NCBI GenBank assembly: GCA_029856155.1
Contig: JAHQWL010000021.1
Location: forward strand, 1 to 55,527
DNA: 55,527 nt
DNA from: Promethearchaeia archaeon
GTDB lineage: Archaea; Asgardarchaeota; Lokiarchaeia; Sigyniarchaeales; SOKP01
Direction of reading: 5' to 3'
Shown: positions 6,375-32,345 of the stretch, in pieces
How positions within the stretch are numbered: position 1 is the stretch's first letter
Layout: every line of letters begins with the position of its first letter
Program-made: the position numbers and the translations under genes
The notes under the pieces: model-generated
What the model was told of the DNA's origin: nothing
Seen by the model: the letters and a program-made list of their open reading frames with translations, nothing else
The model's database searches: none

Positions 6375-7340
6375 TCATTTTGTTTTGTTTTCTACACTTC
6401 TCTTATAAATAATATTCTTTTTAACCATTTGAATAGGTTTATAGGACTCTTTTGCTCTTCTTAAACCTTCAATACCTAAATCTTGTTCTCTATTGACATA
6501 AATCGTATCTACACAGCAATTTTTTAAGAAAAAATTGTTAACTGCTTGGTAAGCACCATCATACTCCATGTGTGCTTTCTCAATATGAATCACTAAGGTT
6601 CCATTATTCAACATTTCACCAAATGTATAAGCAGCACATTTATCATCTACACATAATAATCCACCATTAAAACCAAGTTTCTCAAAATTGTTTAATGCTT
6701 CATATATTGCATCGTGTTCTGCTTCTAAACTTTCATCTTCAGTACACGCTCGCATTACGCACCACTCTAACTGAAGTTCTTTACATTTTTCAACAAGATC
6801 TCCTGTTAATAATTGGAAATCATAGTTATAATTATCTAAGAACTTTTTTAGCCATCTTCTATTTTGCCTATACTTGTTTCCCGCTAAATTTAGAATCTCT
6901 TCTTTGTTATAAATATAATCCCAATTATTACGATCTTCAAGGCAATCCAAATTTAATTTAGAAAATTTCTCATTTTCCCTTAAGCTAATACATATATCCT
7001 CTGGAACTCTATGAACTTCTATATTTTCAATATCCTCAAATAATTCAATAATTATTTTATCAGGAGAAGGACCAATCGGAGGAAAGAAATAAATATACTC
7101 TATAGAGGCTGTATTAATTGGTTTTTTTCTATTTTTCAAATAATCAACAGAAAATAGGATTAAATGCTCCTTAAATTCAATAAATAAGAAATTATAATAA
7201 TTTCTCCACATAAAAAGGTTAGTAAATGTAAATTCAGAAATTTCTGGAGGATATTTTTGAAAATACTCGTCAAATAGCTTTTTATGAGTTATTTCAATTG
7301 GTTTTCCCTTGCTAAGATCCATGGTTATTTTATTATTCAA
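6375..7340 (-). CDS. DUF2156 / phosphatidylglycerol lysyltransferase-like GNAT-fold protein
   Basis: SEFTFTNLFMW, HIEKA, VNREQDLGIEGLRRAKESYKP. Confidence 0.88.
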   Translation of the reverse strand: MNNKITMDLSKGKPIEITHKKLFDEYFQKYPPEISEFTFTNLFMWRNYYNFLFIEFKEHLILFSVDYLKNRKKPINTASIEYIYFFPPIGPSPDKIIIELFEDIENIEVHRVPEDICISLRENEKFSKLNLDCLEDRNNWDYIYNKEEILNLAGNKYRQNRRWLKKFLDNYNYDFQLLTGDLVEKCKELQLEWCVMRACTEDESLEAEHDAIYEALNNFEKLGFNGGLLCVDDKCAAYTFGEMLNNGTLVIHIEKAHMEYDGAYQAVNNFFLKNCCVDTIYVNREQDLGIEGLRRAKESYKPIQMVKKNIIYKRSVENKTK

Positions 7341-18408: not shown

Positions 18409-19140
18409 TTGCTTTCTTCTAAATTAAACAGATTTTCCCAAAAATTTTTGCATATTTTTATCATTATACTGTTAGTATTTAGTATTGCTTATTTTCAAGT
18501 GATATCTAATGGACAATCTGTAAAAAATAATACAATTAAAAGTTCCAATTTAGATTATGACAATGAAATTGAGTTAAAATATGGTATTCCAACCTTAATT
18601 TCGGAGGTATCCGTTCCCTCTGGCAATATTTTTGGAGGGCAAATTATTGAAGGATTATATTTAAAAGCTAACTTCACTGAAAATAATGGTTCAATATGGA
18701 TAAATGACCAGAATAACGATACAATATGGAGAGATTATTTTAATAAAACAATTGAAAGATATATAAATATAAATTCATCTTCTATTCTAGGATACGGTCT
18801 ATGGGCGAATTCTTCGACATTAGGAAATTGTACAGTATATTATACTTTCTCAGCAAGGATAATTCATGCAGAAAATTTTGGTTTAGGTATTCTCATTGTT
18901 TTATTACCCATCATTATTATAGGGATTATTATCTATTCTGTAACTTATGGGAGAAAAAAGGAACCACATTCAGTTAGAGTAGCTACAAGAATAGTAGATA
19001 GAATGAGGTTAAAATATGAAGCATTACATCAAGAAAGGACAACTAAAAAAGAGACAATAATTTGCCCAAAATGTGGTTCTAAAGTGCAAGACTATAGTGA
19101 AAATTTCTGCAGAGAATGTGGTTTTAAATTAAAAAGGTAA
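18409..19140 (+). CDS. Membrane protein with C-terminal zinc ribbon
   Basis: Signal/TM, extracellular region, TM, then CPKCG...FCRECG. Confidence 0.7.
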   Translation: MLSSKLNRFSQKFLHIFIIILLVFSIAYFQVISNGQSVKNNTIKSSNLDYDNEIELKYGIPTLISEVSVPSGNIFGGQIIEGLYLKANFTENNGSIWINDQNNDTIWRDYFNKTIERYININSSSILGYGLWANSSTLGNCTVYYTFSARIIHAENFGLGILIVLLPIIIIGIIIYSVTYGRKKEPHSVRVATRIVDRMRLKYEALHQERTTKKETIICPKCGSKVQDYSENFCRECGFKLKR

Positions 19141-27964: not shown

Positions 27965-28326
27965 ATTGCATAATTACTTAATACCGAATAAAATAATAAA
28001 AGTTCATTTTATTACAAACCAGATTAGTTAACAATCTTTTTTTTAAATTAATGATCGTCAAGAATTCTTTTAATTAAAAACTAAAAGCCTCTTTATTAGA
28101 TTTGTTTTCACCTCAGACCGGTCTTTCGGTGGATCAACTCACATTAATCGGTTATTTTAAGAGCCCCGCTACCTATACAAAGTACGGAATTTGTATGTTG
28201 CAAATTTAACTCCTTTAAATTGACGTATAATACCACCAATTATAATCAATTTATTCCAAAAATAGATTAGATTTTAATTTAATATTGAATAAAACTATAA
28301 AATAAAGAATTTAAAAAAAATTTGGG

Positions 28327-29466
28327 TTACGTTTTTTCTAATTCCATCTGGGAAATTGCTTTTCCAGATCGAAATGGAATATCCTCAAGAGACATACCTG
28401 CTTCAGATTTAAACTTCTTTTTAAAGCTTTCATTTAATGATTGAAAATATAATGATAACGGTAAGTTTTGAGGGCAATTATTATCGCAATTGCCACATTC
28501 TACACATCTATCAGCAACATGAGCTATACGTGTTAATTGGTACGTAGCCTTATCTATATTTTTGTCTTTTCTCTTTTTCTGTAGAATGCAGTCTACACAG
28601 TAGCAAACAGGGCATCCTCTTATACAAGTGTTGCACATAGTGCATTTAAGAAGTTCTGCTATTTTTTCTTTTTGTGAAAGCTTCTCCCATTCTTCCAAAT
28701 CTTTTGCTCGCTTTTCTTTTGCTTTTTCGATTATTTCATTATATTTATCTGTGTGTGCTTTTTTCTCCTTATCTGGAAGTGTTTTTTTCTTGATTCCTGA
28801 TTTATCCAATATATCACTTCCCTTATCAGAATACACTTTTAAGATAATCTCATCTGAATCAACTGGAATTCCAAGATCGCTTACAGTTAAATCAGCGACT
28901 ACCGGAATTTTGCGATAGCATCTCAAACAATTCTCCGCAACAGTAAGATTAAGTTCTTTTGTGCTTCCATCTTCCATTTTGACAATAAGTCCTTTGTCTC
29001 CTACTTTTTCTTTAATAATTTTCGTAGCATCAACATCCTTAATTGATCTCATTTCTCTTGCTGCTTTAGGAAGCATCCCTCGATCTTCTATTCCAATTAT
29101 AAAAAGATTATTGAGATTTACTTGTTTTATTTTAGCAAGTTCAATTAATGCTCTGGTATCACACGGTCGTGCAATAAGACCCACCTTCTCTTTCATTGCA
29201 CCCGCTACGGACTTATGTAAATATTTTGAAGCTGAATCTGTTCTTGCATATCCAAATGCAATTAAAGGAGTTAATGGAAAATCTTTCACATCTTCTTCTT
29301 TTTCTGCTAATTTAGGCTGAACAGTAAATCTATCTATATTCCCGGATTTCTTGTCAACTTTCAATTCAGCACCAATTATTTTGTCTACTGCTTTTTCTTT
29401 TAATAAAGTTGTTAAGATTTTCGGAAAATCTTCAATCTTTATTAAATATTCTGCCATTGCTTCCAT
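28327..29466 (-). CDS. Coenzyme F420 hydrogenase/formate dehydrogenase beta subunit (FrhB/FdhB family)
   Basis: ARPCDTRA, CLRC, ADLTVS, CTMCNTCIRGCPVCYC, CVECGNCDNNCP. Confidence 0.88.
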   Translation of the reverse strand: MEAMAEYLIKIEDFPKILTTLLKEKAVDKIIGAELKVDKKSGNIDRFTVQPKLAEKEEDVKDFPLTPLIAFGYARTDSASKYLHKSVAGAMKEKVGLIARPCDTRALIELAKIKQVNLNNLFIIGIEDRGMLPKAAREMRSIKDVDATKIIKEKVGDKGLIVKMEDGSTKELNLTVAENCLRCYRKIPVVADLTVSDLGIPVDSDEIILKVYSDKGSDILDKSGIKKKTLPDKEKKAHTDKYNEIIEKAKEKRAKDLEEWEKLSQKEKIAELLKCTMCNTCIRGCPVCYCVDCILQKKRKDKNIDKATYQLTRIAHVADRCVECGNCDNNCPQNLPLSLYFQSLNESFKKKFKSEAGMSLEDIPFRSGKAISQMELEKT

Positions 29467-29530
29467 GTAATTCCAACTCTAATTATATACTAATTTTAAA
29501 TATTTTTCTTAAATTTTTTCAAACTATTTT

Positions 29531-29603
29531 ATGTGTTATATGGTGCACCCATTTCTTCAACTGAGTTCTCATTTTTTTAACTCAGCCTCATCAGTAAACA
29601 CAT
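29531..29603 (-). promoter_or_regulatory. Eukaryote-like SECIS element 3' of vhuD
   Basis: Minus strand: AUGUGUU-UACUG-AUGAG-GCUGAGUU-AAAAAAAUGAG-AACUCAGU-UGAA-GAA-AUGGGUGCACCAU-AU-AACACAU. Shows helix I, AUGA/GA core, helix II and A-rich apical loop, 6 nt after the vhuD stop. Confidence 0.88.
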
Positions 29604-29609
29604 TATTTT

Positions 29610-30062
29610 TTAAGCCTTAGCTTTCGCTTTAGCTTTTTCTTGTGTATCGCTTTTTTTTCGTAAAATACTTGGTCCTAGTTCTCGAATTACTTTATCGAAT
29701 TCTGTGGCTACTTTCTGGAACTTTGCACCTTCTGCAGAACTACAAAATTCCATTATTAACCTCTTTGGGTTTATTCCTACTGTTTTAATGACTGCTTTCA
29801 GATATTCAACTAGACGATAAGCAAAATAATTACCACTCTCGTAATCACATTCTCCCGGATATCATCCAACAATCATAACTCCATCAGCGCCTCTACCAAA
29901 AGCTCTCATTACTAGATCTGCTCCTACTCTACCTGTACATGGAACTAAGACGGTTCTTAAGGATGGTGGATACTGTGCTCTAATAGTTCCTGCCATATCA
30001 GCACCACCATATCCTCATTTTAAACATAAAAACGATAAAATTTTTATTTCATTATTTTTCAT
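29610..30062 (-). CDS. vhuD: Hydrogenase delta subunit VhuD/MvhD, selenoprotein with 2 in-frame UGA (150 aa), absent from ORF track
   Basis: MKNNEIKILSFLCLK(U)GYGGADMAG...VPCTGRV...GADGVMIVG(U)YPGECDYESGN...SSAEGAKF; TGA at 30017-30015 (codon 16) and 29864-29862 (codon 67); GAGGTG RBS; TAA stop. Confidence 0.93.
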
Positions 30063-30075
30063 TGTATCCACCTCT

Positions 30076-32052
30076 TTACTCCTCAATAGGTAATAATTCA
30101 TCAATATATGCAACATACTGATTATCTTTATAATGAGCTAGCTCTATAGCTTTTGAGGGACAAAGTGATTCGCAAATTCCACATCCTCTACAGCTAATAA
30201 TATCCACTTGAATTAATCCATTTTCATTGATTGAAATCGCACCATATGGACACGCTTCAATACATTTATAACATTTAGCACAACGTTCATCTAATGGTTG
30301 AGCACGGATTAATTCCATTGTATATTTCTCATTTTTCATAGGTATATTAGCTGAGGAAGCAGCCCCCTTCGCTTGACTAACAGTGAGATCTATAGATTTT
30401 TGTCCTTGACAAGAACCCGCTAAATAGATACCTGGGACTTTTGTATTAATTGGATCGAGCCGTGCATGCCTTTCTTTTAAGAATCCATCCGGTGTTTTTT
30501 CGATATTCATTACCGAAGCTATTTCATTTGTACCTTGAGAAGGCAAAGAAGCTGATGATAATACTACCATATGGAATTCCATTTCTACGATAGAATCTGT
30601 ACCAACTGGTTCAAATTGTATTTTTAGATTTTTAGTGAGAGGATCTTCTTCTATTTTTCCAATTAAACCTTTGATAAATAATATTCCCGCATCTCGAGCT
30701 CTTCTATAGTATTCTTCATACATTTTTCCAGCACATCTCATATCGATATAACTTACAACAATCTCTGAATCAGGGTATTCTGACATTATTAACTTAGAAT
30801 TCTTTACAGATAAATTACAACATACCACACTGCAATACTCATTTGTTTTTAAAGATCTTGATCCTACACAATTTATAAATAAAACCTTTGTAGGACGCTT
30901 TCCATCGGAGGGACGTTTCAAATGTCCAAAAGTTGGACCATTTGGCGCAATTATCCTCTCTAACTGGATTTGTGTAATTACATTCTCATAGCTTCCATAA
31001 CCATAATCATCACCTTGATAAAGATCCCAGCCTGTAGCGACTATTATTGTACCTACTTCCAATTCTAAGATCTTCTCTTGTTGACTAAAATCTATTGCTT
31101 CAGTATCACATGCATCTACACATGCAAAACATTCAATGCAAGAATCTCTTTCAATATCTGAGATTGCAGGAACTGCTTGAGCAAATGCTATATCTATGCA
31201 TTTTCGTGCGGAGAGATTTTCATCAAAGTAATTTGGTATATATACTGGGCATACTTCAGTACATGCACCACACCCAGTACATTTGTCTTCATGAACAAAA
31301 CGTGGTCTTCTCTTTACTTTTACCCTAAAATTACCGATATATCCTTCAACACTAATTACTTCACTATAAGATAAAATTTCGATATTTTCATGTCTATCCG
31401 CTTCAAGCATTTTTGGACCAAGAATTCATATACTACAATCATCGGTGGGAAATGTTCGATCAAGTTGGGACATTCTTCCTCCGATTGTAGTTTTCTTTTC
31501 TACTAAATATACTTTATAGCCTGCATCACCTAAGTCAATAGCTGCACTTAATCCCGCAATTCCTCCTCCAATAACTAGTGAAGTTGTTTTTATTGGAACC
31601 GTTTTTGTAGGAATATCCTCTAATAATTGTGCTCTTGAGATGCCTGCCTTAATTAATTCAATTGCTTTTACATTTGCTTTATCTCGAATTTCTTTTGCTT
31701 GATGAACATAACTACAATGTTCTCTAATATTAGTAAATTCTAAATATCTCTGTGGTATTCCTGCTTCTTTTAAGATTCCATGAAAAACAGGCTCATGGGT
31801 TAAAGGAGTTCAAGCAGCAACAACTACACGATTGAATCCCTTTTCTTCTATTTGTTCCTTTATATATTCAGCTCCACCAGATGTACACATATTTAAATAT
31901 TCATAACTATACACGTTAGGTAGTTTACCAATTTCATCTACAATTTTTGGAACATCTAAAATACCTGCAACATTGATACCTCAGCGACACACAAATACGC
32001 CAACAACTGGCTTTTCATCGTTACTATTTTCATTGGTCTGTTTTCCAGACAA
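30076..32052 (-). CDS. hdrA: Heterodisulfide reductase subunit A, selenoprotein with 3 in-frame UGA (658 aa); the track shows only the C-terminal 444 aa
   Basis: AGGTGA RBS plus TTG at 32052; GVFVCR(U)GINVAG, VVVAA(U)TPLTHE, NIREHCS, IGGGIAG, TFPTDDCSI(U)ILGP, continuous in frame with the ORF starting at 31410; TGA at codons 24, 81 and 209. Confidence 0.92.
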
Positions 32053-32345
32053 ATATATCACCTTAGTTAAACCTAACCTCCTAATTTTTAACGATCATAT
32101 TTCCTCTTAGTTTCTTAGAGTAAACATAAGAAATGTATTATGATCATGTAAATAGTCTATATTATTAAAATTAAATTATTATAACATGTCAATTCTCTTT
32201 TAGTAATATTTCATGAGTTTATAATCAATGTTTAATTCAAAGGACTCATTAAATTGAAACTTATAGAGGAAATTGTTTAATAATTATATTAAGTGAAATT
32301 TTAAAAATTTAGAATAAAAAATAAAGGAAATTGAAAATAAAAAAT

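Follow-up and report, generated by a model that had tools for sequence, protein, structure and literature searches.

Selenoprotein pairs and lokiSECIS elements in Asgard archaea

The Lokiarchaeota HdrA-VhuD tandems all carry a single selenocysteine insertion sequence (SECIS) element, called lokiSECIS, which is located after VhuD (Mariotti et al. 2016, Mol Biol Evol, PMC4989117). HdrA always ends with UAA or UAG in Lokiarchaeota and VhuD may end with UGA, a stop-codon argument made in that paper and identical to the one used below (PMC4989117). The shared HdrA-VhuD SECIS was later restated and confirmed over hundreds of Asgard metagenome-assembled genomes (MAGs) (Huang et al. 2024, ISME J, PMC11227280). 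Here we describe a locus of this kind in a 55,527-nucleotide contig of a Promethearchaeia archaeon (GenBank JAHQWL010000021.1, assembly GCA_029856155.1), hereafter called the window. It contains an hdrA and a vhuD gene with five in-frame UGA codons followed by one SECIS-like hairpin. Comparison with orthologous loci indicates that it is very probably an instance of the published Lokiarchaeota pair, in which this single hairpin would recode all five UGAs.

The published lokiSECIS (Mariotti et al. 2016, PMC4989117) consists of an AUGA directly 5' of a 9-bp stem carrying an 11-nt apical loop. The loop's first five nucleotides are adenine-rich, and the last is a G usually preceded by an A. A GA, or more rarely an AA, stands directly 3' of the stem and the element is situated just downstream of the selenoprotein coding sequence. 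A full-text literature search for the name lokiSECIS retrieves Mariotti et al. 2016 only.

The hdrA-vhuD pair and its five UGA codons

The hdrA gene (heterodisulfide reductase subunit A) extends over 30076-32052 on the minus strand, as do all features of this locus described below. With TGA read through, its reading frame runs from a GTG at 32061 to the TAA at 30078-30076 that closes the gene. It contains three in-frame TGAs (31983-31981, 31812-31810 and 31428-31426), which are codons 27, 84 and 212 when counted from the GTG. The TTG at 32052 is the likely true start rather than the GTG, because the AAGGTGA Shine-Dalgarno motif preceding it is kept in the orthologues; the start coordinate proposed in the initial annotation, 32052, agrees with this comparison. 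The product aligns over its full length (residues 18-657) with the solved structure 9sfi_A (E 1e-198) and exhibits FAD/Rossmann and 4Fe-4S Pfam domains. In this alignment, the three UGAs correspond to a Cys, a second Cys and a residue written X. The latter, codon 212, is by its alignment the canonical selenocysteine (Sec) site. Codons 27 and 212 are UGA in all 16 orthologues, and codon 84 is UGA in eight of them and Cys in the other eight, with no third state.

A spacer of 13 nt (30063-30075), which contains the vhuD Shine-Dalgarno motif GAGGTGGA, separates hdrA from vhuD/mvhD (FlpD family, 29610-30062). The gaps in the paralogous hdrA-vhuD pairs are likewise short (6-21 nt). vhuD starts with an ATG at 30062, includes in-frame TGAs at 30017-30015 (codon 16) and 29864-29862 (codon 67) and ends with TAA. 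Its product matches the FlpD Pfam profile (E 2e-43) and the solved MvhD 8rvu_F (E 3e-37), where both UGAs fall on Cys residues; both positions are UGA in 18 of 18 related loci. All VhuD relatives showing 68-90% identity belong to MAGs of Promethearchaeota/Promethearchaeia, which are Loki-type Asgard archaea. The 13-nt gap and the five UGAs in two cistrons had already been reported in the initial annotation. The former is read directly from the sequence (30075-30063), and the latter are distributed as three in hdrA and two in vhuD, all of them on Cys/Sec columns.

Two further conserved motifs lie upstream of hdrA. A TATA-like motif, TTTTAATAATATAG (32157-32170), is conserved about 100 nt 5' of the gene and is present in the window and in its nearest orthologues (L026-L029 and L031). 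We infer that it is a candidate promoter of the hdrA-vhuD transcript. A TTAGGAGGWT motif (32085-32095) is also conserved in the orthologues, 21-30 nt 5' of the hdrA start. It was rejected as the hdrA Shine-Dalgarno sequence since it is too distant from the start, the AAGGTG being nearer.

A Loki-type SECIS element follows vhuD

A Loki-type (eukaryote-like) SECIS was delineated at 29522-29609 by covariance models and helix II covariation. Its AUGA core (29591-29588) is located 18 nt past the vhuD stop and directly 5' of the main stem. This stem, helix II, includes 9 bp (29587-29579 with 29567-29559, GGCUGAGUU with AACUCAGUU), two of which are G-U pairs, and is closed by an apical loop of 11 nt (29578-29568, AAAAAAAUGAG). 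A GA (29558-29557) follows directly 3' of the stem. The hairpin thus agrees with the published lokiSECIS description at every point. Compensatory changes affect seven of the nine helix II pairs among the orthologues, and all nine across the two sub-types described below. The covariation score was reached by none of 500 shuffles, and controls with a slid register scored far lower. The five UGAs are located 273, 426, 1837, 2221 and 2392 nt upstream of the AUGA core, values that bear out the 0.26-2.4 kb originally estimated.

Two additional helices surround this core: helix I (7 bp, AUGUGUU/AACACAU, 29603-29597 with 29537-29531) and a 4-bp mini-hairpin (29552-29540) set into the internal loop on its 3' side. 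Helix I, the kink-turn with helix II and the 3' mini-hairpin form a three-helix unit in 11 of the 13 lokiSECIS elements folded, among them the window element (29531-29603) and those of L009, L010, L011, L012, L013, L022, L023, L041 and L042. Across the three-helix elements, helix I measures 5-8 bp and the mini-hairpin is short and GC-rich, with sequences that differ by sub-type.

The window hairpin matched no Rfam SECIS family, whether the gathering threshold or E<=10 was applied. Noise-level matches to snoRNA-like families, one of them caused by the CUGAUGA of the core, were discarded.

The element is the only one of its kind in the window

Three covariance models were built, with the window excluded from each, and were used with filters off together with two descriptor scans. 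R1 was trained on six further SECIS elements of this genome, flanks included. R2 derives from 16 orthologous elements in which helix I, helix II and the mini-hairpin were annotated. R3 represents a generic 41-nt core derived from 15 elements of both sub-types. R2 recognises 29522-29609 with 101.7 bits (E 4e-26), and its next match in the window reaches 15.8 bits. R3 recognises 29554-29594 with 41.4 bits (E 1.2e-7 in the whole window), the runner-up reaching 15.1 bits. These E values exclude a chance match.

Neither of the two genes, hdrA and vhuD, nor the 284 nt 5' of hdrA gave anything above noise (maximum 13.4 bits, E 1.3). A descriptor of the euryarchaeal GAA_A element returned two AT-only matches and nothing credible. 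One descriptor match at 18914 was rejected as chance, as it is antisense within an open reading frame (ORF), has no UGA-containing gene upstream and scores 10.8 bits. The statement of the initial annotation that the only SECIS-like hairpin is found after vhuD is therefore upheld by both types of scan, which reveal no second element and none within or 5' of hdrA.

The elements fall into two sub-types. The first, with eight to nine elements in this genome, carries a GA-CUAACC 3' flank and an AUCCGAA-type helix I. The second is that of the window, with GA-AGAAAUGG and an AUGUGUU-type helix I; it is represented by one element in this genome and by 16 orthologues elsewhere. A flanked model of one sub-type does not detect the other, and a MAFFT alignment of the window element with the other sub-type was discarded as misaligned.

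Conservation of the arrangement and of the hdrA stop codon

The 16 orthologous loci have the same layout: hdrA (two or three UGAs, TAA or TAG stop), a short gap, vhuD (two UGAs, TAA stop) and the SECIS. The hdrA-vhuD-SECIS pattern also occurs in three paralogous loci of the genome of the window. In 15 paralogous or orthologous loci, R3 gives exactly one match of at least 30 bits per locus, always after vhuD. The hdrA stop is TAA or TAG in about 21 copies (the window, the four other Sec-hdrA genes of the genome and the 16 orthologues). In the window itself, hdrA, vhuD and the downstream frhB-like gene all end with TAA, and TGA serves as a stop elsewhere: it closes six of the 39 ORFs of at least 150 aa (15%), including those ending at 6375, 16626 and 41386. 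The three TAA stops and the three TGA stops named here had been called in the same way in the initial annotation, which had also proposed synteny and stop-codon usage as a check. The outcome, a single SECIS in 16 orthologues and three paralogues and an hdrA that never ends with TGA, speaks in favour of its inference.

Four of the five Sec-hdrA genes of this genome precede a Sec-vhuD and a SECIS (on C21, which is the window, and on C98, C11 and C30). In the C30 pair (C30:1-1052), hdrA is represented only by a C-terminal fragment at the contig start. A further hdrA fragment, which runs off the end of its contig (C3:5-1531, minus strand), contains four UGAs aligned to codons 27, 59, 84 and 212 and is probably the missing part of the C30 gene. 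If so, the joined pair would have six UGAs. Past the vhuD domain of the C30 copy, the reading frame meets its first stop codon at the UGA contained in the AUGA core of the SECIS; this UGA probably terminates vhuD.

The fifth Sec-hdrA (C22:47481-49573) encodes 678 aa, has its UGAs at codons 17 and 201 and stands without a vhuD, the gene that comes next being convergent. It carries its own lokiSECIS 12 nt past its TAA (core at L012:689-729). This gene is a natural control for sharing: it implies that the element stands behind whichever UGA-containing cistron comes last, and that an hdrA can be served by an element of this type. It is also an exception to the published papers, in which the Asgard hdrA and vhuD are described as always paired.

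Throughout the 4.1-Mb genome (30% GC), the ten strong R3 matches are all located directly 3' of ORFs with an in-frame UGA. The genome encodes a tRNA-Sec (tca), SepSecS (483.5 bits, over the curated cut-off) and SelD (182.6 bits), whose gene has one in-frame TGA. On these profile matches, the archaeal/eukaryotic Sec-decoding trait is predicted to be present, with EFSec and PSTK as candidates.

Alternative explanations

The best surviving alternative is that hdrA has its own recoding signals, either a local hairpin or Sec-redefinition-like element or a SECIS in the 5' untranslated region (UTR), and that the element after vhuD serves vhuD only. A relaxed descriptor scan identified one other AUGA followed by a 9-bp hairpin, inside hdrA (AUGA at 31796, within 31750-31812). 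The second hdrA UGA lies 12 nt 5' of it. Its pairing is complete in those closest relatives that have Sec at codon 84 and degraded where this codon is Cys, and it shows one compensatory change, from U-A to C-G, in L032. Its AUGA, which belongs to His-Glu codons, also tends to accompany Sec at codon 84. However, neither an A-rich loop nor a terminal G nor a conserved GA/AA tail is present in this hairpin, and its pairing decays to 5-6 of the nine pairs in the more distant orthologues. It was consequently rejected as a SECIS, and its correlation with Sec-84 tracks phylogeny. Moreover, UGAs 27 and 212 are associated with no candidate hairpin. A codon-threaded alignment of the 16 hdrA orthologues yielded no consensus structure with RNAalifold (0.00 kcal/mol) in the windows starting 0-18 nt 3' of each of the three UGAs, and the three covariance models and both descriptors leave hdrA and its 5' region at noise (<=13.4 bits). 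We consider that separate signals for hdrA are improbable, and that the 31796 hairpin may have a local stimulatory role.

About half as probable as this is that the hdrA UGAs are not selenocysteine codons, either because the gene is broken or because UGA is read as another residue independently of a SECIS. Indeed, Sec in HdrA is read here from sequence alone and not from the protein, and a range of 1.8-2.4 kb over another cistron is unprecedented for an experimentally proven SECIS. This reading agrees poorly with a frame that stays open and homologous to HdrA for 640 residues beyond the UGAs. It is also opposed by the exact position of the UGAs on conserved Cys/Sec columns, by codon 84, which alternates solely between UGA and Cys, and by position 212, where methanogen HdrA has its canonical Sec. 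The use of TGA as an ordinary stop in the six ORFs mentioned above and the full Sec trait of the genome also argue against a reading other than Sec.

Least probable of all is a hairpin that acts chiefly at the transcript end or on transcript stability, as a terminator or processing site, rather than as a SECIS: it stands at the end of the vhuD cistron and is followed by AT-rich sequence with short U runs, but no tract of five or more U follows it in the window, its AUGA...GA kink-turn signature is invariant and its A-rich loop and fixed 9-bp/11-nt geometry are conserved while the stem sequence covaries freely, and the motif occurs in this genome only directly after ORFs with an in-frame UGA.

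A probable single element for two cistrons

We thus favour recoding of all five UGAs by the one element after vhuD. In this scheme, one promoter upstream of hdrA would probably give rise to a bicistronic, possibly tricistronic, mRNA. Co-transcription of hdrA and vhuD is inferred from the 13-nt gap, the Shine-Dalgarno motif it contains and the conserved upstream TATA-like motif. vhuD would be translated from its own Shine-Dalgarno site, 13 nt past the hdrA stop. The single kink-turn SECIS would presumably recruit the Sec-specific elongation factor and Sec-tRNA(Sec), directly or via a binding protein. The five UGAs, 0.27-2.4 kb upstream, would be read as selenocysteine, and the TAA stops of hdrA and vhuD are not recodable. 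Action of the SECIS at a distance over a cistron boundary and a binding factor are parts of this proposal. All the computational checks run support the proposal of the initial annotation that one SECIS serves the five UGAs of both genes. This proposal is a correct, independent rediscovery of the published hypothesis.

Several observations weigh against this scheme. The case for sharing is mainly by elimination, and both Sec insertion in HdrA and VhuD and the shared mRNA are predicted here from nucleotide sequence. The evidence for Loki SECIS elements is bioinformatic throughout, and one that was tested was non-functional in Methanococcus maripaludis (Peiter & Rother 2025). The lineage has no known SBP2 homologue. 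Two proteins of the genome, one EFSec-like (238.7 bits) and the other PSTK-like (155.7 bits), score under the curated NCBIfam cut-offs. Finally, R1 missed the window element. This implies that the two SECIS sub-types differ markedly outside the core; R1 was replaced by R2 and R3 because it was over-fitted to the GA-CUAACC sub-type.

The downstream frhB-like gene and the three-helix unit

The downstream neighbour is an frhB-like Fe-S gene (28327-29466) that ends with TAA and contains no UGA. Its product exhibits FrhB_FdhB_C and 4Fe-4S Pfam domains. A gene of this type, of about 380 aa, is found in all 16 orthologous loci 3' of the SECIS, with an AT-rich spacer of about 90-170 nt between the two. 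A conserved GAGTTGG motif stands 7-8 nt ahead of its ATG and implies a 5' leader. Judging from these features, the gene may share the transcript of hdrA and vhuD or be transcribed separately; the AT-rich spacer could also contain a promoter of its own. The conservation of this gene raises the question of a SECIS internal to the mRNA, and a strictly intercistronic position of the element depends on a shared transcript.

A more specific proposal combines these observations: a conserved three-gene mRNA in which the SECIS would be internal (hdrA-vhuD-SECIS-frhB-like) rather than part of a 3' UTR, and would function as a junction of three helices, namely helix I, helix II with its kink-turn, and the conserved 3' mini-hairpin. 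We regard it as tentative, with perhaps one chance among several of being right. An Asgard SECIS-binding factor might dock on helix I and the mini-hairpin. If the construct tested in Methanococcus was devoid of helix I and the mini-hairpin, this could explain the failure of the Loki SECIS there.

After the frhB-like gene, a GC-rich island (28110-28185) is found within an AT-rich spacer. It has no Rfam match and no folding signal (z = -0.48), and probably corresponds to a gene remnant.

Other candidate selenoproteins of the genome

A peroxiredoxin-like selenoprotein of 181 aa is encoded at C57:28120-28705 (plus strand). It carries a WUSHC motif with the UGA at codon 60 and is associated with a lokiSECIS of 33.7 bits; it matches the published PrxL family. 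Four small ORFs contain in-frame UGAs, and behind each of them, at about 15 nt or less, stands a strong lokiSECIS (43-48 bits). They are located at C24:13367-13633 (minus strand, 88 aa, motif GCGUGG), C103:54551-54778 (minus strand, 75 aa, motif VSURIY), C74:5787-6095 (minus strand, 102 aa, motif DCFUHK) and C26:63563-64039 (plus strand, 158 aa, motif GCUUEK, with two adjacent UGAs). None of the four has a Pfam family. Their sequences and the elements behind them make them candidate new Asgard selenoproteins.

Comparison with known SECIS systems

Methanococcales and Methanopyrus share with the window the same selenoprotein families (HdrA and VhuD), the same hdrA-vhuD synteny and an element located 3' of the coding region. 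Their SECIS is a GAA_A kink-turn-like motif in the 3' UTR, whereas no such GAA_A element occurs in the window. AUGA...GAC/AAC is likewise present in the VhuD SECIS of methanogens (Mariotti et al., PMC4989117).

Compared with the eukaryotic type I SECIS (Rfam RF00031, SECIS_1), where helix II includes about 12-15 bp, the window element has a helix II of 9 bp and an extra mini-hairpin on the 3' side of the internal loop, and it is not matched by the Rfam model. The mRNA differs as well: it would be polycistronic here, with one element serving two cistrons. By its structure, the element is predicted to work like a eukaryotic SECIS without being a member of the Rfam SECIS_1 family. Vertebrate selenoprotein P provides another parallel, as several UGAs are recoded processively by long-range 3' elements, which is what we propose for the window. 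However, selenoprotein P has one cistron and two 3'-UTR SECIS elements, while the window has two cistrons and one SECIS. If true, a single SECIS recoding as many as six UGAs, spread across two cistrons and about 2 kb, would be without parallel. A shared SECIS also bears on the archaeal origin of the eukaryotic 3'-UTR SECIS system, a significance already recognised in 2016.

The closest system remains the published Lokiarchaeota pair. It equals the window in lineage, gene order, very short gap, single SECIS after vhuD and an hdrA that is never closed by UGA. Both have an HdrA with multiple Sec residues (one at the canonical position around residue 200, others N-terminal) and a VhuD with two, and in both the element is built from AUGA, a stem of 9 bp, an A-rich loop of 11 nt with AG at its end, and GA. 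The three plus two UGAs of the window compare with a published maximum of six, and nothing essential is different. Neither the conservation of the frhB-like gene after the SECIS nor a stand-alone Sec-hdrA with its own SECIS is described in the main text of those papers. As for the unit of helix I and mini-hairpin, the terms "hairpin" and "additional stem" are absent from the main text of PMC11227280, and in the SECIS section of PMC4989117 the one extra stem described lies within the apical loop. The minor additions contributed by this analysis are the C22 control, a unit larger than the published core, the conserved frhB-like gene and the small candidate selenoproteins. The shared-SECIS arrangement itself has been known since 2016, and the window is another clean example of it rather than a new principle.

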